Shown here piece by piece: positions 26,401 to 59,521 of a stretch of 64,000 bases of DNA. A model generated the notes under the pieces. That model did no database searches, was not told where the DNA came from, and saw only the letters and a list, made by a program, of their open reading frames with translations. The DNA comes from Selaginella moellendorffii. Its lineage: Eukaryota; Plantae; Lycopodiophyta. The DNA lies in assembly GCF_000143415.4 (NCBI RefSeq), contig NW_003314264.1, positions 1,113,650 to 1,177,649 on the forward strand. The letters run 5' to 3'. Made by a program: the position numbers and the translations under genes. Numbering within the stretch: the first letter of the stretch is position 1; the number at the start of each line of letters is the position of its first letter.

Positions 26401-26503
26401 GTTTCACATCAGCAATCGCACCTGTTTTAAGTCGCTTTATCTTCCCCTGCTCTCCCTCTTCATCCGGCTCTCGCCCACGCTTTCTAGATGAAGAGGCAGC
26501 CAT
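23414..26503 (-). CDS. Crinkler-type P-loop NTPase plus PD-(D/E)xK restriction-endonuclease-fold protein (probable exons 26503-23731, 23676-23497, 23439-23414)
   Basis: Walker A LVQSSGWGKSR, Walker B LFVMDEAR, RGYRGELVARVLLL, GIDIVI..LILVQVKH; canonical short GT-AG introns; telo-boxes upstream. Confidence 0.7.
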
Positions 26504-28424
26504 AGCTTGAGCTTAACCCTACAAAGACCTCTCCCGTAAAAACCCTAACATTAAGTACACCAGCGGCTGCCCTAACCCTAACCCTAATTTAACTTTCATC
26601 ACCCCAAACATCATCCTGTTTCAGTCTATCGCAAGGCCAGAAACATGGCAAAGGCGATGCAGATCGTCAAGGGGTGGTGACTTGGCAATGATGGCACGAT
26701 TACATGGCATTTCTCTCTTTCCACTCCCGTCCGACTCTGCTTGTACTTATAAATATTATGGAGTTAAAGTTCCATCCAAATATGTATATGTATAGAAGCT
26801 TAAAATAATGAATGAAAAAAAAAATAAAAAAAAAAATTACATAAATGTTGTGGCTATATAGATAGAATAAAATTTTGCATATTTTTTATTATTGTGGAAG
26901 TCCAAAGTATCATGGAAGCTAATTTATTTAGATACATTAATATGTCTAAAAGAACTGAATTTTATTTTTTATTAAGTTAGTATATCTTCTATTGCATTTA
27001 TCTTTTTTTACATATATATATATATATATAATCATTATGTAATAGTATTAGGTAATTTCTAAAGATATTGTTGATTATTAGCTTCATTATTTTAAAAAAA
27101 AATTCATATCCATCAACAAAACTATAGATTATATAACCTCCTACTAATTTTTTCAATGACAAAAAAACTACACTACATTAACTAAATCCATTACACACCA
27201 AAATTTAGACTAGTTCTAAAATTGATAGCAAACTAAAATTTTAAAAATAATAAATTCTAGCTATTATGTTATAAAAGATTTTTAGAACCAAGATAAACAT
27301 ATCTACCATAACTCTGATATTTTGAAACTTAAATAGAAGTTTCCATTAAATAAGATTAATTTGTAAAAACAACAAATATAGTGTTTTAAGATAGTTACTG
27401 CATAAACTCTATATATACTGTATTCTTATCTCTGTTATATACTATAGACATTCTATACATATTTATAAAGTTATCACCAAAAACCAAGAAATATATTATC
27501 TTTAGTTCTAAATAATATGAAAATTCAAAATTTAAAGAAAGCAGAAGATTCAAGTATAAAAAGCATATCCAAATATCTTGAGACAAAAAAAACAAATTAT
27601 TTGCTTGCAATAGCATTAAAAATGCATGATGACATGCAGGCTAGTTGATAGCATTCACAAGAGCTATTGATAAACTTTGACGGGATTTCCAACCAGAGAA
27701 ATGGCTATTTGTTCCAAACCCTGATCTAAGCTCTCATTATCAAAAACTATCCCCATGATTTGTAAGTGAAAATAAAGCCACTTGACTAAGTACCTGCTGG
27801 AAGCCCTCACAAGTATCATTTGGCTGGAAGTTGCACTTTGCATCCTTTCAACAACAATATCGAAGCAGACTTAACCGTTTAGGGTTTAGGGTTAGCTAAA
27901 CCCTAAACTGGTTCTCACAGCTCTTCCATAAGGTAATGGTCGTCTCCACAAGAATACAGCACAACAAACAACACCACAAATCTGCCAACATCAATATATT
28001 TCCAGCTAGCGGCAAGTCTCTGTGTGTTCCTTTTTAAACATTGCAAGTTGCATCCATTTCCTGAGTAGAAGTTCCACAATGTTTCAGAGCTGCTTTTCAA
28101 GTATTTATCTCATGCACAAGCAACTCTTCTTCTTCCTTCTTCAATGAACAATTGCAAGCAGTGCTACAGAACGGAGCTGCTCCATCATAACAATGATAGC
28201 ATGGTCTGCCTAGCTGCTTCTTTGAAATGTTTGACTCTGATTGCTACACAAGTGTGCTTTACTATGTTCTGATATCTTATAGTGTTATTACTTTTTAAAT
28301 GCTTGTTCAGATTTCTTTATATTTGCAGTTGAGTACTGGCTGTGTATTGATACCTCCCACTTTGAACAGCACGTCCTGTAAACTCTGTATTATTATATAA
28401 TATAAACTATTTAGGTGTTACATA

Positions 28425-29198
28425 TCACTCACATGAACACTTACCATTCTGGAAAAAGTGACAACTGTTGACTTCTCTAATTGTGATTATGCCTTTCCTT
28501 TGCTGAGAAAGATCTCTAGTTGCATCATGGCAATTGATACACATTTTAATGAATTTTAAGATAAGAATTACTTTCTCAGGTTTAGTATGCCCAAAAGCAT
28601 ACTTTAGACATTTTAATTTGCTGTGCATACAACCTCCATACTCTGTCAACTTATTTTCCTTATTTCCACATCTCAAATCTGGCCAAAGTTCATGTACTTT
28701 GCCATTATCATCACTCCAGAAACTTAGTCCTTGTTTTTTCAATGCCTTTTTTTCTTTCCTTTCACGTTCTGTCCCTTGCTTTTCTTTAAACATACTTAAT
28801 TTTTCATAAATATCTTGCATCATAACAGCAGATGCATCAGTTTTATCAGCTTTTACAATAACTTTAAATGCTAACTGAGCCACTTTAAAATTCTCAGAAT
28901 TTGTTACAGCCTGATAATAGTGCCCTCCAAGCCGAAAACATTTTTTCAATATTTTTGAATGACATGCTATAAATAAATCATTTTGCTTCTTCCATGTGTT
29001 ATTTTGAGCTAACATATTTACCATACAAATATAGTCTTTATCATTGGGAATTATGTTATATTTAGACATGCATTTAAAATATATTTTACACTTCTCAACT
29101 ATATAGCAGCAAGCAGTAAGTAAATTAATAAATGTTAGGCATGCACAAGATTGTGTGCCTTGCCTAAAGGGCAGTATATTCATCAGAAAATTTCTCAA
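28425..29198 (-). pseudogene. Degenerate PPR E/DYW-like deaminase C-terminus
   Basis: KMCINCHDAT..IITIRE..CHFFQNGKCSCE; HSK in place of HSE; no terminal DYW. Confidence 0.7.
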
Positions 29199-29573
29199 AT
29201 GGCATTGGGACTAGCCCTATAAATCTTTATGGAAAATGTGGTAAAATCAATGTAGCATTGGAGTTATTTAATAATTTACATTTTCCTAGTACAGTTGAAT
29301 GGACTGCCTTAATTGCAGGGTATAGTTGCTCTGGAAATGTATCTCAAACATTTAGATTATTTTGGGAGATGTTAAGAACTGATAAAAACTTGTGAATGTA
29401 ACTTTTATCCAGGTACGTAGTCATGCAGGGATGATAAACAAAGCAATAATGTATTTTAAATTAATTTTTCAATATGGGACAATATTAGGCATGTCGAAAA
29501 TGGCTAAAGTTTTGGTAAAAAAGCGTTTGCTGCTTTAATTAAGCGGCTGAATCCAGGATAGTACGGCAGGCTC

Positions 29574-30772
29574 ATGAGAATGCGGCTCGAGAATGCTTCG
29601 TCCATGGGGCCGCGCGAGGCGATCTTGGACAAGAAGAGCTCCGTGAGAGATTTCGAGAGCTTCTGGATTCCTATGCTGGGCGATCTCATGGGAGGGGATT
29701 ATCACCACTACAGTTTAGAGGTACGCAAGAATCTTAGATTTTTTCTCTTATTTTCTAGTTTCTTTTGATTTGCTATGTTCTTCGTGGCTGTTCTTCCAGC
29801 TTTGCTTATGAGTTTCTTGCTTTTCTTGCCATCAAACTTTGGTGTTGCTGGTCGGGATTTCTTTTGGTTTTCTCGTTGTTTCCGTGCTCGTATCTTTCAT
29901 GCCTGATCGAGTCTGATCTTGTCGGTGACATTCTTTATTGTTTCGTCCTCTCCATCCATCGCGTTCTTATATCACGATCGTGCCAGGTTTTTACATGGCT
30001 CACGAACAATCCAATGGTCCTACTATCGGCCAAGAGACCGCAGCTCGAGCAGCTGTACGCGACGATGATCTCTTACGCCGGAGTCGTTGGGAGCCTGAGG
30101 CTAGCACGAATCTGGTTCGACGATCTCAAAGGCAAGGGGCTCAAGCAATCGACGAGGTGCTGCAATGCTCTCATCCTCGCCTACGCCAAGAAAGGTGACG
30201 CTCAAACCGCGGTCTCCATCCTCGAACAGACGAAAGCCTTCCGCAAGGGGTGCTCGCCAAACGCAGTCACGTACTACATCCTCATCGCCATGTTTGCGAG
30301 TCTGGGTGACTCGCCAGGCCTCGCAAATCTCCTGCGCGACAGCGAGTGCTCGAGCTTTCGTTCCGACGCCATGACTTACAACACTCTCCTCTGCGGCTAC
30401 TCGAAGATGGGAATGCCGGAGGATTTCGACAAGACACACGGGGAAATGGTGGAGGAACTTAGCGAGGAGAGCTACAAGGCGTTGCTCGTTGGATACTCGC
30501 GGCGGGATCGTCTCGACGAGCTCCAGTGCTGTGTGGGGGAGATGCTAGCCAGGGAGATGAGTCTGGCATCACCGGTGGTGGCAGAAGAGATCGCCAAGGC
30601 TTACAGAAGAAATCGATGGGTGGAAGGATTGGACATGGTGATCCAGCTCGAGGAAAAGAGTCCTGGGATTTCTCCAACGTTCCAAAGCTTTATAAATGCT
30701 TGCGATGACGATTTAGAAAAAAAAGGAGGAGATAAGTTTTTACTTTTTTTTCACTACAATCCATGTGATTAA
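29574..30772 (+). CDS. P-class pentatricopeptide repeat protein (intron ~29721-29986; 3' end uncertain)
   Basis: CNALILAYAKKGD, PNAVTYYILI and DAMTYNTLLCGYSK PPR motifs. Confidence 0.7.
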
Positions 30773-31021
30773 CTTTGAATACTATTTTGTGCGGTCTCTT
30801 CCAGCTTTTTCCAGAATATGGACTCACTGGCTGGAAGGATTTCTTGAAAACCATGCTGCTGGAATTCATGGTACGTGGCAAACAAAAGCTGCAATAAAAG
30901 AAAAATCCCAACAAGAATCCAACAAGGGCTGCAAATTGTAGAAAATTGACTGATACCACTAGCATTCTCTAGTCAATAAGAACGCTGACCAGATAATTCT
31001 GGAAATAGATAAACCCTAAAC

Positions 31022-33384
31022 CTAAACCCCGACCTTTAAATTTAAGCTCGACGTGCCGCCTAGACAGCAGCACCGTTGACCCCGCAAAACCCACCGTGTT
31101 CCGCCCACGGCCCCCCGCCGCGCGTCCCCGTGCACCTTGCAGCACCCCAGCAGCGTGTTCCACGCCACCACATCCGGCTGGAACGGCATATTCCTCACCA
31201 CGTCCTCCGCCCGCCCGGCCCGCCCCAGCACGTCCACCATGCACTTCCAGTGGTCGGGCCATGCCGCCAGGCAGTGGTCCTCGACCATGGACACGAAAAA
31301 ATGCCGCGCCTGGGCGAGCAGGCCGGCATGGCTGCACGAGTTGAGGATGCTGACGTAGGTGACGCTGTCGGGCTGGACGCCCTCGAGGTGCATGTCGCGA
31401 TAAAGGAGGATGGCATATTCGGCGTGGCCGTGGTGGGCGTATCCCGCCACCAGGGAACTCCACGTCACCGTGTCGCGGGCTCTCATGCGGTGGAAGGTGC
31501 GGCGGCGTCTCCCATGCTGCTGCAGCGCGCGTACATGCTAACCAGCGCGTTGCCCAAGGTGACGTTGGTCGTGGATCCTGCGAGAATCTCCGGATTCGCG
31601 GCGCATAGCTCGGCGTGGATGCGCTGCCCCTCGGTGAGCTTACCCAGGCCGGCATGAGCGCACAGGAGAATGACGGCCATGATGCAATCGGGCTTTAGAA
31701 TGGAGTCCGAGATGGTGGAGGCCGAGGTGTTACTGGAGTCCGAGCTCTTCACACTTTTTGTGTGCAAACTAGAGTCCGAGCTCGCAGAAACCGAGCTCCT
31801 CAAGCCCGACTCCATGGTCCTCGAGTTCCCAGCCTTCATCTCCGAGAACAATGCGATCGCTTCCTCGTCGTATCCGTGCTGCACATAAGATCCCATCATC
31901 GTGTTCCATGACACCAAGTTCTTCCTCTCGATCCTATCAAACACCCGCCTTGCCTCCTCCAGGCTGCCGCACCGCGCGTACATGTTGATGAGCGCATTCT
32001 GGATCTGGATCTTGAGCATGAAGCTGGAGGATGCAACGCGAGCGTGGAGCTTTCTCGGGAGGCCGACATCCCCGACCAGTGATCCGGCGTGGATTACGTT
32101 GAGCAGCACCACGCTGTCCGGCTGGATCGACTGCCCGACCATCTTGTCGTAGAGCTCGAGAGCTTTGGATCCATTGCCGTGAAAGGTGTAAGCAGTGAGC
32201 ATGGCCGTCCAGGACACGACGTTCTTGCCTGGGATTCTCTGAAAAATCCTCTCGGCGGCCTCTAGATCTCCACACTTGGCGTAGGCAGTGACAAGCGAGT
32301 TCTCCACGCTCAAATCCGGAGGAGAGTGCACCGCGGCGAGCTCCAGCTGCGAGTGGATCCGCTTGCACGATCGCAAGCACCCAGTGCTCGAGCAGGCACT
32401 TAGAACTCCCAGAAAGCTCACGTCGTCGGGCTTGATCCCTTCCAAGTTCATGCCGTGGAAGAGGCCCATCGCCGCGCAGGACTGTGCGCTCACGGCAAAG
32501 GCCGCGATCATGCTGTTCCACGAGACCCTGTTGCGATCTTCCATCCTCTGGAACACCGCAAGAGCTTCCTCCGTGCTGTCACCCTTCGCGTACATCGAGA
32601 CGAGCGCATTCTGGATCGTGATGCTGCTGTGGAGGCCCAGGTCAATCACGGCGGCGTGGATCTTCCTGCCCATATCAAGAAATTCCCTGCTGGAGGACGC
32701 AGTGATCGCCGCAACGAAGGTCACCGGATTGGGCTGGACGCGAGCTTGGATCATCCCCTCGAGCGTCTCGAGCGCCTGGCGGCAATCCCCAATCTGGGCA
32801 AATGTGGTGATCATCGCAGTCCAGGACACTACATCCTTGGGCGGCATCCGATCGAACACCGCCCTGGCCTGCTCGATCGCTCCACACTTGGCATACATGT
32901 CCCAACGAACACGCTCTTGCGGAGATCCGGGGAGAGAATTCTCGCGTGGATGGCCCTACCCAGCGCGAGATCCTTGGCGCCGGAGCACGCAGCCAGTGTG
33001 CTCACGATCACCATTTCGTTAGGTTCCACATCCATGCGCTGGAAGAGTTGATCGCCTCGCGGCAATGCCCCGACTGCGTAGGCCGCGATGATGCAGCTCC
33101 AAGACACCACATCTTTCTTGGGCATCTGATCGAAGACTGCGCGCGCGGCCGCGAGGCTGCTGGTGCCACCACATTTCCTGTACATCTGGATGAGGAGATT
33201 ACACGCTCCGGAGGAAGTGGCCTGTGACGAGGATGTGATCGTGGACACGGCGGCCGTCGGCGAGCGAGCGGGAGATGCCGCAGCGGCGGAGGATGGATGC
33301 GTAGAGGGCCGCCGATGGCGATCGCAGCTGCGAGAGCGCATCTTGGATAGATGGGAGCACTCGCTTGCCACATTCTTTGCTCAT
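31022..33384 (-). pseudogene. PLS-class PPR pseudogene (several frameshifts)
   Basis: MYAKCG/DVVSWT motifs spread over ORFs in different frames; E domain truncated. Confidence 0.85.
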
Positions 33385-34768
33385 AAGCCCTAGAAGAATC
33401 CTCAATATAGAAAAACATATCTTTTTAGGGTTCTTCTTGGAAGAGTAGGGTGGCGAAATCGAATGGTGGAGGATCTGCAGATCCCCGACCAGCAAAGAAG
33501 CTTCCGCTTGGTTTTTGAGTAGGTACATTTTGCCCTTGTCTTTGTGAAACTTGTTTCTAATATCAACTTTCTTTGCATGCAGCACCGGCTTGCACATTTG
33601 TGTTTATAATTTATAAACGTTCCTAAACACTTTTTAGTATATTCTTGTTTATTCTACCACCTAATGTAATAAAAGGCATGCAGCAAATTTTGGTTTGAGA
33701 AAGAGCGATGGCTATATATTTAGAACCCCCCGAACCTTAAGGAACACATGCTTTGGGCATTCACCCTTAGTACCAAGAGTTAGTCTCTAGGACAAACTTG
33801 AAACTTACTAAATATGGAATGTCTTTATATTGCGAATTTAGACATAGGACGAACACCATTGTGTTCAGAACAATCTTTACATTCCGTAGATATGCCAAAT
33901 GAGCGAATCTAGACACTTTCCATAAATAGCATTTGGGACCGAAATAAAACTAACACAAAGGGCATGATAGAAAGGGTGTTTAGTAGACATGGTAAGCTAT
34001 CATCTAGGGATATTGAGGGACCAAACTCAATATCGTAAAGGTTCTTGATACTAGTAAGTGCAAGCCAATGACACAAGTTTCTCAAACTAAGCCGAGTATG
34101 CTCAACAAGAAACACATAGGGTTCCTACCTTATGTTTATCCAATTTAAGTGCATTGTTATTGACCAATTTCTTGCTATCCCATGACTAAAGATTTTACCA
34201 CACACAAAGTGTTCAAGTCAATTTACCTATACTGGCTCAAACTCAAAAATCAATAAATGGACAAATCAAAGTCAAAGACAATGATAATATCTTAGAGGTG
34301 TCAGGAATCCCCCAATTCTTGCCACATTCCTGACTTGCAGACCACATTCCTAACTCTCAAGACACTTCCCTATTCCTGACTCTCGAGATACTTCCCTATT
34401 TCTGACTCTCGAGACACTTTCAGATTCCTGAGTCTCGAGCCATATTCCTGATGATGATGTGGCGCCTCCTCGACCTCAGCTATATTTAGGCCGTCCTCGA
34501 TCCAAGAGTGGTGGAGCTTCATCAACCTATAGTATATATAGGTTAGCCTTGTTCCATTTCTCCACAATCTGAATCAACGCCAGTCTAAGGCCTCTTCTTT
34601 GTTTCCACTAGTTTTTTCTCTTTGTCTTTTTGCATTTTCCAGTCTTGATTTTGTCAGGGGTCTTGACAGTTTGATTCAGATTGTGTTTTTTCATTTTTTG
34701 ATTTAGCTCATTTTGATTGTTTGATTACCTTTGCCTTTTTTTTCCCCCTTTTTTCTTTCTTCTTGCCA

Positions 34769-37700
34769 ATGGAGTCTCCAAGCCATCCTGATTTCTTTGC
34801 TGAAGTCCTTGCAAAAATCCAGTCTGAGAATACTGAGTTGAAGGCGACCCTTCTTCGCATGCAGCAGGAGCTTGCTTCACTTTCGGCTCAAGGATCCAAC
34901 GAAGTTCCTGAACCGAAGGTGAGCTTCCCGGCGAAATTTTCAGGCAAGCGTTCGGAGCTTCGCGGATTCCTGAACCAGATGGAGTTGATCTTCGCACTTC
35001 AACATCGGCGGTACCCTACTCCCGAGTCTCAAATCGGCGCGATTGGGACGTTGCTCGAAGGTGCAGCTTTGTGTAAGGAACCGACTCCCCGAGATGTCGT
35101 AGGCTAAAGGATCCCCAAAAGCTTGACCGAAGTGACAAAGAGTTCATCGGATGGGACCAAGTCGAGGATCGAGTCCAAGACCGACTCTAGGACCGAGTTC
35201 GAGATAGAGTCCGGAATCGAGTCCGAGACCGACTCGGGGACCGAGTTCGAGTCCGAGTTCGAGACCGAGTTCGAGACGGAGTCCGAGATCCGAAATCGGG
35301 TCCAAGACCGAGTCCGAGGTCGAGTCCGAGGTCGGGTCCGAGATCGGGTCTGAGATCGAGTCCGTGATCGAGTCCGAACCCGAATCCGAAGTCGGATCCG
35401 AAATCGGGTCCGAGATCGAGCCAGAGACTAAGTCCAAATACTAATACGGGTCAAGGGGTGAAAGCCCAAAGCGTGCGTCTCCCAGGGGGGGGGGGGCTGT
35501 AGGGGGTTCCAAAAGTATAGTAGGGATAGTGAGGTCCAGGAACCAGTTTTGAAGGGACTCTCCAGTTGGGCTTCCAAACCGACTTGAGGTTGGGATTGGG
35601 ACCGAGGGGCCTTGGGTGGGAGTGAGCATGGACTTGGCTGGTGCCGGAGGGGCCATCCAAGGAAGTGCTCAAGAGCAGCTCCCACTCCCGAAAGGGAAAC
35701 CGATTGCGATGCTCCCGGCTCATGTGGAGTGGTGCCCCACTTGAGTACCATGCGGCTCATTGGTCCTCGCCCTTCCTAGGGGCTTGGGCCTTCCTTCGGG
35801 ATGGAAGTGGGGGGCGAGAGGTACCCATACCGGGCCGCTAGGCCACGGTGTTTCGCCCCGGCGTCCCGAAGCAAGTGTTGCACTCAAGACTTGGGATTTA
35901 GAGGGTCCCATGATCAAGTCTTGTGGTACCAAGGGATGTTAGGAACCTGGAAGCTTGGTGTGCTTGGCTGCTTGTGCTTGCGGGGAGTGTAGCCGAACCT
36001 TAAGTCCAGTCTAACCCGGGGAGGGGGATTGGGAGTGATTTGGGAATCCATGGAAGGATGGCTAACACTCCGTTGCTCGTGCAGTGAGTAGCTAAAACCA
36101 AGTAGGAGCTGGTACCATAGGCGAGAACCTTGGCGAGGGAACTTAGCAAAAGCCAAGGCAGTGTTGGACGGATAGGCGAGGTAAGCTGGCAAAGTGGAAA
36201 GGAAAAATTTGTGGCTTACAATTTGGTATCGGAGCCTTCTCCTCAGTTCTAGCGAAGGATAGAGGCGGATTGCTGGGAGATGGCAAGGGCAGGGCGTAAG
36301 TGAACCCAGGCGGAGACAGAACCTCCGCCAGAGCTGGAGCCTCCGGTCGAACAAGAGGCTATGGATGAGGAATCCTTGCATGAGGAGGACTCTAGTGAGG
36401 AAACTTCCAAACAGGAGTCCGGTGGCGAGGTTCGGTCGTCCAAGGCTCGATTGGACGTTCTAGAAGGTCAATTGGCGCAGACCAATGCCCTGCTGGAGAC
36501 TCTCGTACGCAAGCTAAAGCGTGACGAGAAGCGAAAGAAAAGGCGAAAGACTGCAGATGCTGGCAGCGCAGAAGGTGCGGACCCTTCGGCAGGGACTGAG
36601 GCAAAACCAGACAAGGTCGAACAGACCGAAGTGGAATCAGTCCCTCAGGCAGTTCCCAAGTACAAACCAAAGCCCCCACCGGTGTTCAAGGGAGTGAACG
36701 ACTATAAGGTTGTGGAGGATTGGTTTTACGATATGGAGGACTACTTCCGAGCGTTACGGTTACCGAGCTCGGAGAAGGTCCCATGTGCAAAACCATACTT
36801 GGCAGATAATGCCAAGTCTTGGTGGAGAACAACGGAGGCCAACGAAGGACCGGTGGCCACCTGGGACATGATGAAGGCGAGGATCCGCGCGACATACGTT
36901 CCTCCGAATGCCACTCTGCATCTGAGAGATGAGCTGAGTAGGCTGAAGCAGAGTGGAACCATCCAGGAATATGTGAATGGGTTCATGGCAAAGAGGATAC
37001 TTGTCACGGACATGGGGGATATGGATGCGTTCCATGCCTTTATATCAGGTTTGCAAACCTGGGCTCGCGGTGAGGTGATGCGCTGGAACCCGACCAACTA
37101 CAAGGAAGCGTTGGATGCGGCCATCAAGGTGCATTTCAACGATAACCTGCGAAAGGGGAACACGACGGGGTCGGGATCCACGTTTCACAAAGGGGCCAAA
37201 CCGAGGGGAACATATAGCAGGGGGAAATTCAAGAAGAGTTTCTCTAAGAATGAGTCCTTGGGATTTCGGAAAGGCAAATCCGGTGGCCAGCGAGCAAGTA
37301 CGTGGGGGAGTCAAGCGAAAAGAGACAAACCCACGGATAAGAAGGTCAAGTCATATAGCAGCGTGGGAAACAATGTATGCTATAACTGCGGTGAAGCGGG
37401 ACACTTTTCGAGGGAATGTCCCTACCCGAAGAAGGCCAGAGCCAATATGGCCATCAAGTTGGGTGAAGTCCAAAATGAGGTATGTGATCCAGTCCCTAAC
37501 TCAAAGTTACTCATTACACGAGCAACTTTGGTAGAGAGTCATTCGCGACATCTACTAGCCCTCCGAGGGAAGCTCGGAGGTAGCTTTGTTAAGATCCTTA
37601 TTGACACGGGTGCTTCGGATAATTTTGTGGCTGCAGACATAGTCCGGCAAGCCGGACTAACGGTGCAGCGGCTAGGCGAACCAAGGACTATAGAGTTTGT

Positions 37701-40700
37701 TCAAGGTAGCCAAAGCACCGATGAGGTACTTCGACAAGCGAAAGTCGAAGTAGGGACATGGAAGGTAGACATGGATTTCACCGTGTTGGACATGGCGGGA
37801 TTTGACGTGATCTTCGGAATGGATTAGTTCAATCGGTTTGTGGTAGCCCTACATGGACAAGGTAGGAACCTTGTGGTACTGGCGAATGCCCAAGGAAGAA
37901 GATCTAGGGTGGAAGCCCAGGATCTAAAGGTAGGGCAAAGCAAGGCCAAAGAATCCTGCTTAAACCTGGTGTCCACGAGAGGACAACTCACTAAAGGAAC
38001 TAAGGCAGCCTTTTTGTGCTTACTCTCGGTGAAGAGTGACAAAAAGACAAGAACGGAAGAAGTGCCTTTAGTGATCCAGCGGGTGTTGGACCAATTCCAG
38101 GATACCATGCCGGAGGAGCTACCGGCGGGGCTGCCCCCAGCACGACCGATAGAACATAAGATTGAGCTGGTCGAGGGTGCTGAGGCAGTGGTTCGTCCCC
38201 CTTATCGTTTGAACGAAAAAGAACTCAAGGAGCTCAAGTGCCAACTAGAGGAGTTGGTGGACAAAGGGTATGTTAGGTTGAGCAAGTCGCCGTATGGGGC
38301 GCCGGTGTTATTTGTGAAAAAGAAAGATGGATCTATGCGCATGTGCATAGACTACCGCTTGCTCAACAAGTATACAAAGAAGAACAAGTACCCTTTGCCA
38401 AGGATTGAGGACCTGTTCGATAGGTTGGGAAAGGCAAAATACTTCTCGAGGATTGACCTAAGGTCAGGATACTACCAGATCAGGGTAGCCGAGGAAGATG
38501 TCGAGAAGACAACCTGTCGAATGAGGTATGGGAGCTTTGAGTTTCTGGTGATGCCCTTCGGGCTATGTAATGCGCCGGCAACGTTTTCGGCGCTAATGAA
38601 CCACGTCTTTGTACCCTATCTGGATCACTTCGTAGTCGTCTATATCGACGACATCCTGATCTATAGCGAGACGCTAGAAGAGCACGCCGAACACTTGGCG
38701 AAGGTGTTTGAGAAACTAAGGGAACACAAGCTGTATGCTAAAGAGAGCAAATGTGACTTTGCTCAACAAGAGGTAAAGTTTCTCGGGCATGTGGTGGGCC
38801 AGGACGGGCTCAAGGTGGACCCGGAGAAGGTCCAAGCGATCCAGGAATGGGAGCGACCATCGAATGTACATGAGTTGAGGGCGTTCCTGGGGCTATACAA
38901 CTACTATCGAAAGTTTATCAGACACTATTCGAGAGTAGCCCTGCCCTTAACGGACCAAACAGGAAAAGGGAAGATGGTATGGACAGCAGAATGCGAGGCG
39001 GCATTCGTCCACCTCAAAGGGAAGTTGAGGAAGGCTCCCGTATTGGCATTGCCAAACTTTGGTAAGGACTTTGAGGTAGAAACGGATGCTTCGGACTTTG
39101 CGTTGGGCACAGTTCTGAAGCAAGACAACCATCCGGTAGCGTTCTTCTCGAAGAAGCTGGACAAGGCTCAACGGAAGTGGCCTGCCCATGAGAAGGAATT
39201 GTTTGCGGTGGTCAAGGCACTCAAGGAGTGGCGACACTACCTTGGGAGACACTTCAAGGTTTACACGGACAATGTGGCAACGAAACACTTCTTGTCACAG
39301 CCCGACCTAAGAGGGAAACAAGGTCGGTGGGCTAATGCCTTGGCCGAGTTTGATTGCGAAATTCTGTACAAGCCTGGGAAGAGCAACATCGTGGCGGATG
39401 CGCTAAGTCGAAAAGCGAGCTTGAAGTTGGCAATATCCAGCGCAACAGCAACCTTCTGGGACGATGTGCGGACAGCATATGAGAACGATGGTCTAGCACA
39501 AGAAGTGTTGCTGAGGAATCTAGAGGCGCGGGAAGCTCACCAGAGAGGTGAGCTGCCAACGGAAGAGAAAACGGGCTATGCGGAACGCAACGGACTCATT
39601 TATTACAAGCAAACGAGGGTGTATGTTCCAGAAGGGGAACTAAGGAAGGTGGCCTTAGAAGAGTGTCATGACGGACCTCTTGCGGGACACGGCAGAGTGC
39701 CCAAGACGATGGGCTTACTCAAGAGGAAGTACCATTGGCCAGATATGGCTAAGGACGTCCAAGACTATGTAAAGACATGTCCAACATGTCAGCAGGTCAA
39801 AGCCGTGACTAAGGCTAGTGGGGGCTTGTTGCAAAGCATCCCAATTCCAGATCGCCCGTGGAAATGTCTTACGATGGACTTCATCACGGGACTACCCCCA
39901 AGCGAGGGGTTCGATGCGATATTCGTGGTGGTGGACCGATTTTCAAAGATGGCACATTTCATACCCACCACAACGGACGTGGATGCGGAAGGTGTGGCGA
40001 AGCTATTCTTCGAACAAGTGGTTCGAGTGCGGGGAAGGCCGGAAGAGATTATCTCAGATCGAGATAAGATCTTCACTAGTAGGTTCTGGAGGACACTCCT
40101 AGAACAGTATCGCACCAAATTGAAATTCAGCACAGCCTATCACCCACAGACAGGTAATGGGTATTAAGTCAAGATTGATGGCACTAACACTTCTTGACAG
40201 ATGGACAAACGGAAAGGGTGAATATGCAGCTGGAGGATTATTTGTGATGCTATGTCTCGGGAGACCAGACCGACTGGGTAAGTCATTTGGGACTTGCGGA
40301 AATGTGTTATAACAACTCACCACACTCAAGCATCGGGGTGAGTCCATGGGAAGTCATCAATGGGCGAGCTATTGAAGGTCCTGTGGAACTCGGCGTGGCC
40401 GAGTATCATGGAGAGTTACCCGCAGTGGAGGCATTCACGGCGGAAAGACTCAACATTTGGAATCTAGTGAGGGATTCCTTGGAACGGGCTCAACAAAGGC
40501 AAACTAAGTACGCGAACCAAAAGCGTCGGGATGTGGAGTTCCAAGCTGGGGAGAAGGTGTGGCTGAACACCAAGAACCTCAGACTACCAAGCTGGATCAG
40601 CCGAAAGTTGACCCAAAGGTAAAGACGCATGTATTCCTGTAAATGAATTGATCTTGAGTTCCTTAAGCAGGTTCGCGGGGCCTTATGAAATTGAGGCACG

Positions 40701-43235
40701 AATCGGTAAAGTGGCTTACCGACTCCGACTTCCTCGAGAGATGGGGAAGATGCACCCAGTGTTCCACGTGAACTTACTCAAGCCGTACTTTGAGGATCCG
40801 CTTCGCAAGGACCAAGTGAGACCTTTACCTGAGGTTATCCAAGGGGAAGAGGAATACGAAGTCGAGGCCATCCTCAATGAGCGCAAGAGTAAGCGACAAG
40901 GACGCGAGGTGAGAGAGTTCCATGTGAAGTGGAAAGGATTTCCACACTACGAAGCAACATGGGAACCGGAGGAGAACCTAGCGAACGCTCAAGATCTAGT
41001 GGAGGAATTTCTGCAAGGCAGAACTTTATATACTTATGCAAAATTCAATTAAAAATATCAATTTGCAAAGTTGAGCAAGTGGCATATGTTGGGACCCGAA
41101 GGCGCGCCAAAGGTAAGCTAATTAGCATGGGTTGGATAGGTCGACCAGGCGTAGGGCACTACGCCCGACTCCCTGCGGGGATGTCGAATCCGTAGACGTA
41201 TTCTACGGAGGTTGGGTTCGAGTCCCAACCCCCTAGTAAAGCAAGGCTGGGTTCAAGTCCCGACCCTATACTAGGGCGTGGTGAGGTGAGGAGTATAGGG
41301 ACACCTATATTCCGTTGTCATGGGCTCTTGGCCGGGGAGGCTAACTTAGGCACACCGCTAAGTGGGGGGATGCCCCCGGAGACATGGACAACAAGTCGTA
41401 GGATAAAACGAGACGTTCGATGTGGGCATCGAACTTCTTCTATGGGTGGTGGAGTTGTAAGGAACCGACTCCCCGAGATGTCGTAGGCTAAAGGATCCCC
41501 AAAAGCTTGACCGAAGTGACAAAGAGTTCATCGGATGGGACCAAGTCGAGGATCGAGTCCAAGACCGACTCTAGGACCGAGTTCGAGATAGAGTCCGGAA
41601 TCGAGTCCGAGACCGACTCGGGGACCGAGTTCGAGTCCGAGTTCGAGACCGAGTTCGAGACGGAGTCCGAGATCCGAAATCGGGTCCGAGACCGGGTCCG
41701 AGATCGAGTCCGTGATCGAGTCCGAACCCGAATCCGAAGTCGGATCCGAAATCGGGTCCGAGATCGAGCCAGAGACTAAGTCCAAATACTAATACGGGTC
41801 AAGGGGTGAAAGCCCAAAGCGTGCGTCTCCCAGGGGGGGGGGGGGGCTGCAGGGGGTTCCAAAAGTATAGTAGGGATAGTGAGGTCCAGGAACCAGTTTT
41901 GAAGGGACTCTCCAGTTGGGCTTCCAAACCGACTTGAGGTTGGGATTGGGACCGAGGGGCCTTGGGTGGGAGTGAGCATGGACTTGGCTGGTGCCGGAGG
42001 GGCCATCCAAGGAAGTGCTCAAGAGCAGCTCCCACTCCCGAAAGGGAAACCGATTGCGATGCTCCCGGCTCATGTGGAGTGGTGCCCCACTTGAGTACCA
42101 TGCGGCTCATTGGTCCTCGCCCTTCCTAGGGGCTTGGGCCTTCCTTCGGGATGGAAGTGGGGGGCGAGAGGTACCCATACCGGGCCGCTAAGCCACGGTG
42201 TTTCGCCCCGGCGTCCCGAAGCAAGTGTTGCACTCAAGACTTGGGATTTAGAGGGTCCCATGATCAAGTCTTGTGGTACCAAGGGATGTTAGGAACCTGG
42301 AAGCTTGGTGTGCTTGGCTGCTTGTGCTTGCGGGGAGTGTAGCCGAACCTTAAGTCCAGTCTAACCCGGGGAGGGGGATTGGGAGTGATTTGGGAATCCA
42401 TGGAAGGATGGCTAACACTCCGTTGCTCGTGCAATGAGTAGCTGAAACCAAGTAGGAGCTGGTACCATAGGCGAGAACCTTGGCGAGGGAACTTAGCAAA
42501 AGCCAAGGCAGTGTTGGACGGATAGGCGAGGTAAGTTGGCAAAGTGGAAAGGAAAAATTTGTGGCTTACACTTTGTCATGGTTTTCTCCTCTTCTGGAGA
42601 AGAGCATGAAAGGGGTCGTGGTTCCAGAGCTGATGGATCTTCAATTGTTCAAAGAGAAGCTCGAAGCATGTTTTGGCGAGACGGATCGGGTTCGGGCTGC
42701 TACCACAAAGATGAGACGTCTCTCTCAGGGGTCTCGTCCTGCCTCGATCTATGCTGCAGAGTTCCAACTCCTTGCTTTGGACACTCAGTGGGATGAGCGG
42801 GCCCTGATTGACCAATTTCGTTTCGGCCTCAACAACGGTGTCAAGGATTTGTTGCTCACTATGGAGGATCCCAAGGACCTGTCGGATGCCATCAACAAAG
42901 CTGTTCGATGTGACAATCGTCTCTTTGAACGTCGTCAGGAAAGTCACCGCACCGCTGTTTTTCCGTCCCAGACTCAGGAATCCCAGCTTGAGTCTTCGGG
43001 GCATACTCCTGAACCTACTGCTCCGGTTCCGATGGATATTTCTGGTACTCCCCGACTCATTAGAGGGAAGTTGAGTCCTGCTGAGAAGCAACGTCGAATA
43101 TCTCATAATCTTTGCCTCTATTGTGCTGATCCTAATCACAAAGCAGCTGTATGTCCCAAGATTCCTGACAGAGGGGGTGCTGTCAGGAATCCCCCAATTC
43201 TTGCCACATTCCTGACCTGCAGACCACATTCCTGA
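34769..43235 (+). CDS. gag: Gag (PEG10/Tf1-sushi-like capsid plus CCHC knuckle), split by the chromovirus: 34769-35071 + 42576-43235, ~320 aa
   Basis: Removing the insertion and one TSD rejoins LEGAAL|SWFSP in frame; [14 protein letters not shown] knuckle. Confidence 0.9.
40154..40200 (+). other. 47-nt GT-AG intron in the integrase core
   Basis: gtaatg...cactaac...ttgacag; removal restores [12 protein letters not shown]. Confidence 0.88.
40619..40670 (+). other. 52-nt GT-AG intron before the GPY motif
   Basis: gtaaag...aagcag; removal restores [12 protein letters not shown]. Confidence 0.88.
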
Positions 43236-46200
43236 CTCTCGAGACACTTCCCTATTCCTGACTCTCGAGACACTTCCCTATTCCTGACTCTCGAGACACT
43301 TTCCAATTCCTGAGTCTTGAGCCATATTCCTAATGATGATGTGGCGCCTCCTCGACCTCAGCTATATTTAGGCCGTCCTCGATCCAAGAGTGGTGGAGCT
43401 TCATCAACCTATAGTATATATAGGTTAGCCTTGTTCCATTTCTCCACAATCTGAATCAACGCCAGTCTAAGGCCTCTTCTTTGTTTCCACTAGTTTTTTC
43501 TCTTTGTCTTTTTGCATTTTCCAGTCTTGATCTTGTCAGGGGTCTTGACAAGAGGCTTAATTATCAATGAATAAAGCTTAAATGAAAACACAAAAGTGAT
43601 CTAAGTAAGTTATCATCCGATAAACTAGGATGAGCGTATAGGAACCACCAAGATCACCATAGTTGGAAAATATAGAATTTATTATCCAACAAAATTCAAT
43701 AGCCAATATACCATCAATAACACTTGATAATAAAACTTAGAGGGAAAGGGCCCATGAACAAGAATGCACCCCCTTTTCCAATCGGTTAAGGGTCTTGGGA
43801 TAGTTGGGGTTAAGTGTCCTTGGGTTTGAATAGTACTGGGCTAGGTGACCTCTCAGGAAGTCCAAACTCAGGAGCTTATATTAACTATCAAAGATTTCAG
43901 ATAGCATACTAAACAACTTACATAAGAGAACTCAAAAAACACAAAGTATCATTGACTAGCAAGCAAATACTCGCGAATGTATCATCCAAAGGAAGTAACA
44001 TCAAATCTATCAAAACCAACTATAACAACAATCAACAAAACAGAATAAATGTGGTAAAACTAACAAACATGCATTCATGGCAACTATTGCACTAGCCAAT
44101 CTAAATAGATTCTAATCAATAATACCAAGGAACTAGAGTTGCTCAAGCAAGCGGGAACTAGAGTTGCTCAAGCAAGCGTCAGCAACATCCTAATGATGTC
44201 TCAAACCCAAGAGACTAATCCAAAACAAATCATAAAGAACATGTGGTAATGCGAAAAGCTATAAGCCATCAAAGAGAATAACTAACTATCATTAATTATC
44301 CCATCAATAAAGAGATGCATAATCATTGTCGAAGAAAGAATCCACCATCCGAAGAATGGTAAATTATTCTAGATCAACAATAATCAAGCAGAACTTTTTG
44401 ACAAAAATAATCAACTATTCTAGATGATAGTTAATCATTACCAATGATTGCTAAATGCAAATACTAACTTTAATATCAAAGCTAATAAGCTAAAAATGCC
44501 TTCCCCACCAATTTTTAATAAATGGAACAATGAGCATAAAACTCAAAGAACCAAAAGCTTGAAGAAGCCTATAACCAAGTCTTGCCTAACAATGATCACA
44601 AGTTTGCATGAACTAACTCAATGCTAAAGAAGATATCATGGTACAATCCACAATATCTTCCTCAACACATCCATAAGTTAAATTTCATAATGTTAAAGCT
44701 AATGAAGAGCATATCTACATCAATCCAAAAGCCAAATATATTGAAGCTATGTTTAACAAGTGATCACCAAATGATCCTCCATGAATCCATCTATAGCAAG
44801 ACGTAACTCACTTCATAACAAGCGTGAAAAAAATCATTAATGATCAATATATTCCAACTCAAATCTAACAAGGACTCAAATATTCCAATATCGATCACTA
44901 ATTTTTCCTCTCATAAAGCTAACATAATCCATGACTAAATCACTTTTCAAGGAAAAGCTAAAGCTCAACGCCTACTAAACAATCATGTCGAGAACATAAC
45001 TAACTCCACTTGCCACTTAGTTCATTTGAACATCAATACAGTTGTTAACTAACAAATGCATGAATGTTAATAACACAAAGCTACAACTAAATCATCAACA
45101 TTATCTTCATCAAGACTAATGAAACTCAATATCAATCTTATGGAGAGACATCTTATTTCACTTAAATCCCAACATCAATAATATTAACAATAAGGCATCA
45201 CTTCAATGCCATCAACACTAAAATAAAGCTAGAAGAAAGTGAGAGTGAATAACCATTCAAAGTTATTTAACAACCAAGTTAACCAAAATCGAAGATACTA
45301 TAGTTAGTATCCAAGACTAATTCTTCAACAATACTCAGTTATAGATAACATATCATCAAGGAATGATTCACCACATCCAAGACTCAATGAAATTTAACAC
45401 CACAGATTAAACGTAACCAAATGATATCGACAAAGGTGGAATTGATATGCGTACATGGAAAAACCATGGAAGTCTAATGACACAATCCTCCATAACACCA
45501 CTCAGTAAAGCAAGCCCATTACTGCTAAATCGTCATCGAGCGAAGCAAGTGTCAATAATTCATGACGAAGTCTACAAGTAATCATTAGTCACAAAACAAC
45601 CAACAATTACTCTTTAACTTGCCTTCATAAGACCTAAACACTAAACTCATACTATCAAATCATATACTTGTTCAACATGAATGTAATACCCCAAACACAA
45701 GATAAAAGTTCATGAATAAGCACAAACTAAATGACCACTCGAATTCAACTCAATCGCAATAAGCTCACTAATGTGTTTAGCCAATACCTTTGAGCATACT
45801 TTAAAAAGGCTAGCTATGCATGATCAACACTTAGTTGAAACTAAAGTGTAAACCATGAGATGGACTCCTATCAGTACACAACTTCCTCGTAGACAAAGCT
45901 ATAGTATAGGTACTAACATCTTAAACTCAAACAACTACGTTGGACATCACCATCCTTAGCCAAGGTGTAGGGCTACCAAGACTAAGTCAAAATCTGAGAG
46001 CTCACTACTCTCATAGAGTTTAACAAAATGCAAGGTGCAACTTGCCACTAAGCACAACGCTACAAAAGAAAGGCACAAGAGTCATCTTTTTAAAAAAGTG
46101 TAACAGCCACTTTTCTACACCAACTCTAAACTTTAACCAACTCAATTGCTTTAGCCTCAAAAGTCGGCATCTCTTTTAGATCGTATCATACAAACTACTT

Positions 46201-49199
46201 ACTAAGGTTTAAGCTAATTAAAGTCAACTCCAACCCCTTCACTTGTTTGTATTGGCTTACGAAAATTGAGAGGTTTTCAAACAAAATGATCAACAGATCA
46301 GCCATTGGAGAAGTTTGAGAAAATTTGTGAAAAATTTTCCATCTTAGATAAAGAATGACTCTCAGTCTAGGAACACAAATTTTCAAGACTCAACCAACTT
46401 CCTCTTACTAGCAACTTCATATAGGTTCACTTCAACACTAATTTTTATGACCCAACAGCATGCTTAAGCATTAAATATCTTTGCCCATATATTCGACATT
46501 TAACACTAACATCCGTAAAATGCAAGATGAACATCTAAAGCTTGATTACGAAAACCATATCTTTGGATATCCACATTATATTTAAGACTTTTCTTCAATC
46601 ACCTTTAAGATCCAATATGAAGCCAAAACATTAACAAAAAAAAATAATGACATAGAAAATCAAGGTCCAAGGAAAATTTCTCATCACTCAAAATAACAAA
46701 TGCCACTTCTACTAACAGAAGTGTTAGTGATGTCAATGCCCCAACTACACATTTTCTTCATCCAACAATTTACTCTAAGTGCTAACGGATCAACTAACAA
46801 GCCATAGCAAGTGAATATTATAACCCTTTTCAACACCTTATAGGCAAACCCTCAAGGAAACAAAGTACCAACTTAAGCTTAGCATAATAAATCACTATTG
46901 AGAATCTAGTTAAAGCTACTACAATACTACTATGTGCAAGTAGACTAACTTCACTATCAATCACTTTGGGGTTAATCATCATTTAACCAAGCAACTTAGT
47001 AACCACATTACTCATTAACACATAAATATGATATAAAAATCATAATGACTTGATCATCAATTGAGCAACACCACGAGCAATGCTCATATCACTACTTCAA
47101 AGGTTTATATGAGTATCAAGTGCTAACTCAATTCGACAAAATGCAACGTAAATGTTACACTCCATCGATCGAGATTTACAACACTCAATACCATTAACTC
47201 TTGTTCATAACACAGATAAGCTTATGCCACTCTCTTTCCAACCAAACTCAAAACTAATCCAACACTAAGCTACTTAAGGAGCAATAGCAAGGTTCCCCGA
47301 AAAAGAATTGAGCATTATAACCCAAGTCTTCCAATAGTGAGACTAGACAAAATGGTTTAGCGCTTCACCGCTATCCATCCCATAATTCACCACTTATAAA
47401 ACTATCATTTCCAATATGCATCAAGGTAGGGACTTTTGATTGCATAATGTGAACACGAACAATAAGTCATATCTCGTTGCAAATCATTTCTTTAAGAAGA
47501 GAAAATGATTTACATGTTTGATCCTTCGTCCCCAATGACTCTCTTTTCAATCTCATCTTTTGGTTAAACCTCAAGCTTGCTTTTGCACTGCCTTCAATCC
47601 AATCCAAGAAAAGTTTATGAGAGAGCACGGCAATAACTACTTGAACTAATAGACTAATCCTTACAATCTTGATTGATTTACTTATAATTATGCCTAGGAA
47701 GGATCCACTAGTGCCATGCTAAACAACTACAGACGAGCTTATTTACCACTGATAGCAAACCTAGGGAAGGTTTACTTTCACCCATGGTACATGGAACAGC
47801 TTATGGAACTACTGGAAGTACTCATGGAACCACCGATAAGTTAACATTAATCTTGCTAACTCAAAGTGTAAGCTTGAGTTGCTAATGTGTCTCATTCACA
47901 AGCCCAAGCGCAAACTCGTGCAAACAAAACATCTCACATCCATCCTATGAGCCTAAGCACAAGCTTGTATAATCTACTACAAAAGGTAACCAAAGTCCAT
48001 ACCCAAGGAACAAATGTGAAGTCTTAGCACCCAAATGTGTACTCACTCGGATCATCATTTTCATCTCTGCGTATGTAGCTTAATCTCATTGAATAGTGAG
48101 ACATATTTTCTAATACCAAATATAGCGCACATGGTTTTTACCCTTTATCATATGGTAATTTACCATAGGATAACCACAAAGTAGAACCTAAACCCTTTAT
48201 ATGCCACATGTCACCTGCCACATGTCATATGCCACGTGTCCAAAAGATAGTGGTGCAAAACCGGAGTTTTATGGCCTTAGGCCACTAAACGAAGGAACAG
48301 TGCCAAACTCCTAAACATGAAGCCAAGGAGTGATGGCACTGGAGCACAAAACAACTTTCGAGCGTACAGCCCAAGGAGCGAAGGGACAAGAAGGTGGAGT
48401 GACTTGAAATAGTCCTAAAGTATCCAGCATCTCAATGCCAAGACCAACATGCAAAATGGAGCCAACGGAGTGTGGCATTATTTTAGCATACCAGTGGCCT
48501 AATGCGAGGATATAGGTACTCCACTAGCTAGGGCAAGCACGCAAGCGGGAGTTAGACTATGCCTTAAGTTTGCCCAACCTACCCCACTATCCTTAATATA
48601 CATTTGGAATCCCCCACCCCCCTAAGGAACACACGTTTTGGGCTTTCACCCTTAGTACTAAGAGTTAGTCTTTGGGACAAGCTTGAAACTTATTAAATAT
48701 GGAATGTTCTTAGATTGTGAATTTGGACACAAGACAAACCAGGATGATCTTTACATTCCGTAGATATGCCGAATAAGTGAATCTAGACACTTTTCATAAA
48801 TAGCATTTGGGACCAAAATGAGACTAAACACTATCGCTATCATGCCTTTTGTGTTAGTAGACATAGTAAGCTATCATTTAGCAATATTGAAGGACCAAGC
48901 TCAATATTGTGGGGGTTCTTGATACTAGCAAGTGCAAGCTAATGACACAAGTTTCTCAAACTAGACCGAGTATGCTCAGCAAGAAACACATAGGATATTT
49001 ATCCAATTTAAATGCATTATCATTGACCAGTTTCTCAACTAGCTCAAATGGGAATTGATAATGGGTTCAATAGTACCAACCTTTTATCGTCGTGGCAACA
49101 AGAAAAGAATATCCGAAAGGACTAGCTGATTGGTAATTTTTGATACCTAAAGTCACATTCGCAACAATGCCATTCCATATTTCAATATAAGCATTCAAA

Positions 49200-50221: not shown

Positions 50222-51641
50222 TTAGTTTCTTCTTCCTTCGCTCTCGTTATAGCTGTCATTGGAGTGATCGGAGAAGGATGACGAGCTCTCGCCCGCACTC
50301 ACGAATTCGACAAATGGCTCGCGATCAGTGACCTTGATCACCTCAGAGCTGATGCCCGACGAAGAATTGCAGCTCAGCATCGCATCTTCACTGGTGCTAG
50401 AAGAATAGCTTGCGTTGCAGTTGTTCCTGGCGACCGAAACGTTCCTTACGACCATGCTGTTCGTGTTCATGGCTCGAGGCGGCGGCATGAGCACCCTTGC
50501 GGCTGACTCTCGTCTCTGGAGAAAACCAAAGACAACCAAAAGCAAAAGAGAATGTTGTGGATTTTTCACTGAAAAGATTACCTCCCTATGCTGTGGAGCA
50601 ACATCTGTGTCTCTTGAGGTATCATCCCTGTCATCTCCTGGCCTAAAAGAATGAAACAAAGTGCTACTATAAACTTGAAAGCATGGAAAAAATACCTCGG
50701 ACTTCTGTCTGTCCACTCATCATCGGCATCGGCATCGTCACTGGAGCTTCCTTCGATAAATATATCATCCTCGCTCAAGTCCATGGGCTCCTCGTCTTCG
50801 CTCCCCGTCTCTAAGTTGTAAAAGAGAGTTAGAGGACCATTCAGAACTTTGCTTCTTTTCTTTTCTACCTTCGAGCTCAGTTCCCGCGGCCACGGCAGCA
50901 CTTCGTCGGGATTTAATCTTCTCGCGGATTTCCAGCCTCCGGGATCTCGTGAGCTCGTCGTCGCTCCCGATAAACAGTGATACATACCTTTCAGACTTTG
51001 GAAAAAACTGCACGACAGTGAACCTGGTTTTTCAGTGACGAGCCTCGATATGAGATAAAGACGAGAAAGAAGAGAAGACTTTGTCTTCGCTACATACCCG
51101 CACGTATTCAAGGTCTTCTTTCAGCCTTGCAAGTTGATCCGCGATGCCGGCTATTTGTCTTGAGGCATTTGCCTGATGTGGATGATGATCCAAGTTCCAG
51201 CGATGCTGCTTCTCCAGACGTCGAATTCTTCTCTCAAGCTTCCTACGTTCTAAGCATCCAAAGAGATCCAAACGAATAAAAAGAAAGTAAAGCGACTCCA
51301 CTCACCAAAGAACTTTAGCTTTCTATCCCGCAGAGCCAATTTCCGATGCGCGTGGAGCTCCGCCTGCCGCCTGAGATCTTCCAGCCGCTTCTCATGCGCG
51401 GTCTTGATCTCGAGAGGGAGAGTCTGCAAATGCGATCCAGCACTTTCCATGAATTTCCCGAAGAATTCGAGCTTACCTTCTTGAGCAGGCGCTCGATGGA
51501 GCGAATCTGGTTGCGAATTGCCTTGCGATCCCCTTCCTTGCCGCGCACAGCCAGCCCGCGGGACGATCGCGCGGCATACCCGCCCCCCAGCGACGGAGAT
51601 CTTCCGGCGACACGCCTCTTGGCGTAAGGACCATGCGCCAT
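50222..51641 (-). CDS. EFG1: rRNA-processing protein Efg1 (multi-exon, short introns)
   Basis: MAHGPYAKRR, IRNQIRSIERLLKK, KLKFF|ERRKLERRIRRL, LKEDLEYVR|FFPKSERYVSLF; e.g. intron 51424-51476. Confidence 0.88.
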
Positions 51642-54353: not shown

Positions 54354-54829
54354 GCCAACCAAACATAATTTTTTCGATGACAGAATATACTTCGAGATTA
54401 TAGCATATTCTATTATTTAAATTAATGTTTGGATTTTAAAACATCAAATTTTGTCTAATAAACATTAATTTCTTTTCACTACTATAAAAATTCATTATTT
54501 TTATAAATTAAATATCATTGATCCACAATTTCTAGACCCTGTGGAACTTTTTGAAGTTTTTGTACATTGCACAATTGATTTTACCTATATGGTGGTCTAG
54601 ATTGGTCCAAAATTGCATATTATTACTATCAGACTTATATCAATCAATTATAGTTTGGATGTCAATGCGTGTTTGATTTCAAGTGAAGGTGAAAAAAAAC
54701 TCAAAAAAGTATGAAGAGGCAACAAGTATATAACAAATATGATGTCACAAGTGATATAATTTCAGTAAAAAGGTAGCTATTATGTAATATCTAAAGAAAA
54801 CAACTATACAAATATCTTCTCTAATTATT

Positions 54830-58372: not shown

Positions 58373-59013
58373 TGTTGTCATAAATGTGACTTTGGGTATC
58401 AAAAGTTACTTATTGGCTATCCTTTTGGATATTCTTTCCTTATTACCACGATGGCATGAGGTTGGTATTACTAAATCCTTTATTAGTCTCCATCTAAGTT
58501 AGTTGAGAAATTGGTCTTCGCATGTACACTTGACTAAATGGGTATAAGGACGGAATTCCTAAATGCTATTAGTCAAGCATACTTGACTTGGTTAAAGAAA
58601 CTCATTCGTTAACTTGCACTTCCTAGTGTTGGGAACCCCTGCAATATTGAGCTCTTAATATTTGCAAAATGATAATTTACTGTATTTACCAAACACTCGC
58701 TATCATGCCTTTTGTGTTAGTCTCATTCCGGTCCTAAATGCTATTTATGGAAGGTGTCTAGATTTGTTCATTTGGCATATTTACAGAATGTAGAGATTGT
58801 CTTGAACACAATGATGTTCGTCCCGTACCCAAATTCACAATCTAAGGATATTCCATATTTAATAAGTTTTAAATTTGTCCCAAAGACTAACTCTTGGTAC
58901 TAAAGGAGGCTTGGGGTGAAAACCTAAAGCGTGTGTTTCTCAAGGGAGGATATGAATGGCTTCAAATGTATAGTAGGGATAGTGGGTAGGTCGGGCATGG
59001 CCGACTAACCTGA
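58373..59013 (+). mobile_element. Family A LTR, 5' part, interrupted at 59014
   Basis: Reverse complement of 17990-18561 and of the flank at 6535-6720. Confidence 0.8.
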
Positions 59014-59489
59014 TGTGAGACACAAAATCCCTAGGCCCCAAAGTGGAGCCGGAAGGGCGCCACATGGTAGTGGCCGAAGCGAGAGCCAAACGAGCGTAAC
59101 ACGTTTGGACCAAAAGCTCCGACTTGAAAAGTCAAGAGCGGGAGTGGAACTCCCAACAAAGTGCTCGAGGAACGAGCACGAGGCGAGCAAAAGGCGAGGC
59201 TCCAAAAAGGGACCCAAAAGGACCAACACATGACACGTGGGAGTGTCCGAGATGGAGTTCGAAGTGGAGTCCGAGGTGGACCCGAGTTGGAGTCCGAAGT
59301 GGAGTCGGAGATGGACCCGAGATGGACCCAAAATGGAGTCCGAGATGGAGTCCGAGATGGACCCGAGATGGACCCGAAATGGAGTCCGAGATGGAGTCCG
59401 AGATGGACCCGAAATGGAGTCCGAGATGGAGTCCGAGATGGACCCGAGATGGAGTCCAAGATGGAGTCCGAAGTCGAGACCGAGACCGG

Positions 59490-59521
<32 letters not shown>

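Follow-up and report, generated by a model that had tools for sequence, protein, structure and literature searches.

That introns are lost when an element passes through RNA is the textbook demonstration of retrotransposition. In the Drosophila P element, a DNA transposon, splicing of the third intron decides whether an active recombinase is made, and retention of this intron yields a truncated repressor. In foamy viruses, Pol is made from a spliced pol mRNA, a subgenomic message whose intron takes out gag rather than splitting a catalytic domain. For plants, a recent review names, in its available text, Ogre and EVADE as notable exceptions to intron loss (PMC12786077). Ogre, a Ty3/gypsy element of the Tat lineage, is described as keeping an intron in its genomic copies, which is removed from a subset of transcripts so that the downstream Pol is translated (PMC6317226, PMC12786077). 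In the Ty1/copia elements EVD and BARE1, as described in the parts available, a spliced short-Gag RNA goes to polysomes and the unspliced RNA serves as genome, with splicing setting the ratio of Gag to enzymes (PMC5580714, PMC12786077), and the same parts of the former source report that no conserved splicing was found for Arabidopsis Ty3/gypsy elements (PMC5580714). Spliceosomal introns are also described as surviving retrotransposition in Penelope-like elements (PMC8557442).

The chromoviruses of Selaginella moellendorffii include, according to the available text of PMC3350952, SM1-Galahad, with hundreds of copies and none of them intact, and SM2-Galahad, with hundreds of copies and an intact single ORF. 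SM1-Galahad is given there as 7.5 kb long, with LTRs of 1076/1146 nt, poly-G tracts of 11-25 nt and a 13 bp tRNA-Met primer-binding site, and as encoding a 3885-nt ORF of 1295 aa without a chromodomain, plus ORFs of 316 and 309 nt, the latter being a separate ORF for the chromodomain (PMC3350952). Here, we describe a chromovirus in a stretch of 64,000 nt of S. moellendorffii DNA (the window) whose integrase coding sequence is interrupted by two short inserts, and we discuss what these inserts are, how old they are and what they may do.

Structure and identity of the element

The whole element occupies positions 35072-42570 of the window (7499 nt). It shows the Gag-PR-RT-RH-IN order of a Ty3/gypsy chromovirus, together with LTRs ending in TG..CA, a 5-nt target-site duplication (TSD), a primer-binding site (PBS), typed against the tRNA-Met consensus, and a polypurine tract (PPT). 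Its features are as follows:

35067-35071, no strand: left TSD, sequence CTTTG
35072-36220, plus strand: 5' LTR, 1149 nt, TG..CA, with a tandem tract and a 12-nt poly-G
36224-36236, plus strand: PBS, 13 nt, tRNA-Met type
36280-40153, plus strand: exon 1, encoding Gag, zinc knuckle, protease, RT, RNase H, integrase HHCC and two catalytic Asp
40154-40200, plus strand: predicted intron 1, 47 nt, phase 1, GT..AG, GC 0.38, with CTAAC; a stop at 40165 closes the 3885-nt unspliced ORF
40201-40618, plus strand: exon 2, encoding the catalytic Glu and the remainder of the integrase core
40619-40670, plus strand: predicted intron 2, 52 nt, phase 2, GT..AG, GC 0.37; stop at 40620 when retained
40671-41052, plus strand: exon 3, encoding a Tf2-type SH3/GPY region and the chromodomain, up to the stop
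41053-41455, plus strand: non-coding hairpin stretch, z -4.5, with the PPT at its end
41456-42570, plus strand: 3' LTR, 1115 nt, TG..CA, with a 14-nt poly-G
42571-42575, no strand: right TSD, sequence CTTTG

Gag through the first part of integrase lies in one frame, and the SH3/GPY region and chromodomain (PF00385, E 4.5e-18, exon 3) lie in a later frame, the chromodomain being joined to integrase solely via splicing. Three in-frame stops are present outside the inserts, at 36301 and 37825 in exon 1 and at 40245 in exon 2, so that the window copy, although young, is dead and not itself functional. In sequencing-run records (see below), the stop at 36301 is absent from a contig of run X11, and that at 40245 is absent from the records of runs X1, X3 and X20. 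Downstream of the coding region, 41053-41455 folds as a row of short hairpins that no shuffled sequence equalled in stability (z -4.5, 0/100 shuffles), and is a candidate export or packaging element; Rfam gave no matches in the element, and no tRNA was found in the window.

The published lengths agree closely with those found here. The window element equals SM1-Galahad, as far as it is described, in size (7499 nt, LTRs of 1149 and 1115 nt, 12 and 14 G), and it gives both a 3885-nt ORF, which starts with the ATG at 36280 and is closed by the intron 1 stop, and a 309-nt chromodomain ORF. Since ORFs of 3885 and 309 nt occur in the window as well as in the publication, the published consensus, which was built from many copies, has the same breaks. 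The middle ORF measures 318 nt in the window (ATG 40302) versus 316 nt in the description, and the 309-nt ORF is listed there as 113 aa versus 103 aa in the window. The window element is thus likely SM1-Galahad, a match by published lengths and features and not by comparison with the exemplar sequence, for which the supplement text of PMC3350952 yielded no match. In the available description, the tail of SM1-Galahad is treated as two extra short ORFs, whereas here it is read as spliced exons of the integrase gene (PMC3350952). The family is already described, and its intron-split gene structure is previously unrecognised; 'intron' and 'splic' have 0 occurrences in the main text of PMC3350952. 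Protein searches, a weak negative, returned no close family member, close named relative or spliced gene model, the best match having ~55% identity, with 71% on one short chromodomain stretch.

The chromovirus lies within another, small LTR element (34299-43550) that has gag only, and interrupts its gag ORF; the 370-nt LTRs of this outer element are 97% alike. A third copy of the outer element's LTR, on the minus strand at 20544-20931, splits a stretch that is repeated at 44516-48068. Tandem LTR-like units at 59013-61900 are ~70% alike to the chromovirus LTR and carry the same kind of 11-12-nt tandem tract, possibly as a related family. A second Ty3/gypsy pol, at 14960-16623, is decayed and shows 39% identity in part of its RT. 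Several genes or gene fragments of the PPR class, including one that encodes a DYW domain, occur at 28428-33380 and 51810-54416. On the minus strand, an open frame of 935 codons at 23708-26512 gave no match in Pfam.

Two inserts with the features of introns

A preliminary description, made from the sequence, had proposed two frame-breaking GT..AG inserts at these places, a branch site in the first of them, and restoration of the integrase by their exact removal. Lengths, ends and phases all proved to be as claimed, and CTAAC is found at 40184-40188, 12 nt upstream of the 3' end of intron 1; intron 2 has branch-like words that are weaker than this CTAAC. Both inserts break the frame and bring in a stop on read-through. 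The GC content of the coding DNA beside them is 0.49-0.51, versus 0.37-0.38 inside, and with GT..AG ends and GC below that of the exons both have the features of U2-type introns. GT..AG ends occur in only 0.26% of 47-nt blocks and 0.47% of 52-nt blocks of the upstream coding DNA.

Comparison with homologs agrees with the proposed restoration. In an alignment of 120 homologous proteins, the spacing at site 1 is exactly one residue in 115, the remaining 5 being not scorable; at site 2, the alignment gives one residue in 24 proteins and other values in 9, with 87 not scorable, and a motif count gives one residue in 61 of the 62 proteins having the motif. The D-35-E spacing, present in 92/93 scorable homologs, is regained in the window only after removal of the 47 nt, and removal of both inserts restores the homolog spacing at the two sites. 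The part before insert 1 aligns with Ty3 and foamy-virus integrase structures and stops short of the catalytic Glu.

Direct repeats of 5 nt and 4 nt at the intron joints could be traces of insertions that duplicated a few bases, a weak lead only because they are near normal splice-site context. Compared with the rest of the window, the inserts gave no informative match (longest 13-14 nt), and no stable fold of a kind suggesting a cis signal was found in either intron. A match in size with host introns had been claimed as well. The Efg1 gene named there is present (50222-51640, minus strand) and has six short introns of 53, 56, ~89, 58, 53 and 66 nt, lengths (53-89 nt) that were read by eye; the NTPase gene that was also named could not be located. 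The 3' part of the Efg1 gene is repeated near 8149-9577.

Splicing in sequencing-run records

Sequencing-run records were compared with 39990-40829. X1 and X3 are RNA by guess (X3 may be DNA), and X20 is a recorded RNA-Seq run from a different study from X1. Among the runs that a run search listed as containing the sequence, none is recorded as RNA. When spliced records were sought across 40153/40201 and 40618/40671, removal of intron 1 was seen in X1 and X20 and removal of intron 2 in X1 only. In X1, one 2500-nt contig of depth 11.2 leaves out 47 and 52 nt, each stretch bounded by GT..AG, exactly at the predicted places; depth is zero within both introns, and the run contains no unspliced contig. 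The X1 sequence differs from the window at 6/741 nt, and none of these differences lies in the 161 nt compared in exon 3. The 47-nt joint occurs in one of five X20 reads, with its first mate on the minus strand, so that the read is sense provided that the library follows the usual stranded kind. A low-likeness X20 read entering intron 2 was set aside, its continuation being unlike the stretch. X3 contigs retain intron 1 and run into intron 2 from both sides, and X8, from organism B, has 0 matching contigs over 39990-40829. Across the whole internal region, 9 reads were found in X20, 0 in X21 and 0 in X22 (about 12% of each run read). RNA support for splicing is exact yet thin, consisting of a single read and a single contig, the latter from a run that is RNA by guess.

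The differences in exon 2 among the X1, X3 and X20 records comprise five non-synonymous changes and one synonymous change (in the split codon), plus the stop; as they are few and mixed with decay of the window copy, they show no selection on exon 2.

Retention in the family and age of the introns

Other copies are seen in X11, a run of unknown kind that looks like low-coverage DNA, with 2.84 Mb of contigs that cover the whole element and drop rare variants. X11 contig 7 (depth 53, 40102-40757) keeps both introns with 0 gaps and differs from the window at 21 letters in 656. At least 6 of these 21 differences fall in intron 1 (6/47 versus at most 15/609, Fisher p 0.002), where they spare GT, AG and CTAAC. 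No exon-exon joint was found among the 317 records of X11, a run of unknown kind whose contigs drop rare variants. In ORF1, the X11 differences are synonymous at 20 sites and not at 10 (30 sites classed of 128 found). The claim that the inserts are common to the family is supported by this contig and by the ORF breaks of the published SM1-Galahad consensus. Intron 1 exists in two versions, the X3 contig being identical to the window and the X11 contig differing at six listed places. Within the window, no second copy of the chromovirus integrase was found.

More distant relatives look different. Among 80 metagenome loci of ~50% identity, scored by anchored distances, a method suited to decayed copies, site 1 was scorable in 71, all within 1 nt of no insert, and site 2 in 12, all insert-free. 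Since these distant relatives are insert-free where scorable, the comparison points to gain of the introns in the chromovirus lineage of the window.

The two LTRs of the window copy differ by 7 substitutions in ~1112 columns, two of them in the tandem tract, and by gaps of 36 and 2 nt; an eighth listed difference is a flanking base and was left out of the count. This agrees with the ~5 substitutions outside repeat tracts reported in the preliminary description, and the CTTTG TSD, reported as intact, is found on both sides. The insertion would be ~0.24-0.48 Myr old, at angiosperm rates that are uncalibrated for this genome. As the intron-bearing sibling contig has diverged further from the window (21/656) than the LTRs from each other (7/~1112), the introns predate the insertion, were part of the RNA from which the window copy arose and thus passed through reverse transcription, as had been proposed. 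None of the outcomes that would speak against this picture, namely inserts private to this copy, no spliced reads or most family members being without the inserts, appeared. We consider it very likely that both inserts are genuine introns, spliced and shared across the family.

Proposed mechanism

Because the introns are missing from spliced RNA records while the genomic copies that were examined retain them, active integrase is likely made only from doubly spliced RNA. The family probably depends on spliced RNA for its active integrase and copies its unspliced RNA. From the frames, splicing and genomic retention, three products follow, their lengths being read from the frames and ignoring the window copy's own stops. 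Unspliced RNA would serve both as the genome for reverse transcription and as message for 1295 aa, comprising Gag-PR-RT-RH and an integrase stub that contains HHCC and the two Asp but lacks the catalytic Glu. Removal of intron 1 alone would give 1431 aa, with DDE complete and neither GPY/SH3 nor chromodomain, and removal of both introns 1557 aa, an active chromo-integrase. In this single-ORF element, the spliced fraction may thereby control how much active integrase is made for a given amount of Gag and RT.

Spliced RNA still has the PBS, the PPT and both LTR ends and is only 99 nt shorter than unspliced RNA. As it has all known replication signals, something must prevent it from founding intron-less lineages. 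Unspliced RNA may enter particles preferentially by routing, with spliced RNA going to polysomes, or through poor splicing in transposing cells; lower fitness of intron-less copies is a further candidate. A more specific version, in which two host-type introns were gained after the split from intron-less relatives and regulated, stage-specific splicing now acts as a transposition switch with RNA sorting, making the family a retroelement counterpart of the P element, is tentative, and we lean against it. Here, the particles made from unspliced RNA would contain an integrase stub that is inactive and possibly inhibitory, double splicing would supply the chromatin-targeting enzyme, and RNA sorting, perhaps via the hairpin array before the PPT, would exclude spliced RNA from particles.

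Alternative explanations

Splicing could be real and yet incidental, with integrase provided in trans (e.g. by SM2-Galahad) or by leaky splicing, and with introns that hitch-hiked on a successful master copy. The available text gives SM2-Galahad an intact single ORF and copies in the hundreds, and reports no SM1 copy as intact (PMC3350952), the exon 2 differences are mostly non-synonymous, and the element is barely transcribed in X20-X22, all of which would fit. Against it, intron 1 varies without change to its splice signals, frame and motif are recovered exactly on each removal, and the X1 contig that skips both introns is free of the exon 2 stop and matches the window throughout the 161 nt compared in exon 3; moreover, at X1-like splicing efficiency, we infer that neutral introns should vanish within a few rounds. 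On balance, this explanation appears unlikely.

Less probable still, and in our view improbable, is an origin of the skipped forms in rare genomic copies that have no introns and are expressed and autonomous, with the intron-bearing copies as passengers. No joint occurs among the 317 X11 records, although rare DNA variants are invisible in that run, and the published genome search, in the text available, found no intact single-ORF SM1 copy (PMC3350952). X1 is RNA by guess only and has no unspliced contig, as such copies would predict, but at 6/741 nt it is nearer to the window than is the intron-bearing X11 contig (21/656), and so does not represent an ancestor from before the intron gain; a copy of its age without introns would itself derive from spliced RNA. 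Hardly credible is the reading of the inserts as inactivating insertions and of the skips as template-switch artefacts at short direct repeats: it could draw on the 5-nt and 4-nt repeats at the joints, but these are near normal splice-site context, the two separate skips both have GT..AG ends and both restore the homolog spacing, and the first is found in two studies. Dependence of the family on spliced RNA for integrase remains our preferred reading.

Comparison with known systems

Retention of introns within integrase is very unusual among elements that transpose via RNA. A full-text literature search, going by titles, the openings of abstracts and selected text, found no report of introns inside the integrase of an LTR element, with Repbase, subscription journals and the REXdb element table outside its reach; among the papers listed, Galahad is mentioned together with Selaginella in just two; the available parts of PMC2864245, PMC6839031, PMC12477816, PMC7175516, PMC7730604 and PMC9097378 mention no integrase intron, and Selaginella gave no match in five text supplements of the REXdb paper, the element table lying outside these. 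With the catalytic Glu behind an intron in a family of hundreds of copies, the long-standing question of how RNA is chosen for packaging becomes directly testable, the forms being only 99 internal bases apart; the family also allows the gain of introns within a core gene of a retroelement to be dated. Families classed as lacking intact copies, on account of ORFs that look broken, may be intact after splicing.

The closest parallel in plants is Ogre, in which, as here, genomic copies keep the intron and splicing opens downstream enzyme coding (PMC6317226, PMC12786077). As far as the Ogre intron is described, it lies between ORFs, whereas the window introns interrupt integrase itself, with gag to integrase in one frame, and an intron of the Ogre type was accordingly rejected. 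In the Ty1/copia elements, per the available text, the spliced RNA is the short-Gag message and the enzymes come from unspliced RNA (PMC5580714, PMC12786077); the window element is the reverse, its ORF growing from 1295 to 1557 aa on splicing, and short-Gag splicing was likewise rejected. Penelope-like elements are not LTR elements and have no LTR-integrase cycle, and in the functionally studied cases described their intron is in the 5' leader (PMC8557442). The LTR retrotransposon Cer1 CERV has, as proposed here, a genome that stays unspliced and an mRNA that is spliced, but its spliced product, in the available description, is an accessory export protein (PMC10309623), whereas that of the Selaginella element would be the integrase.
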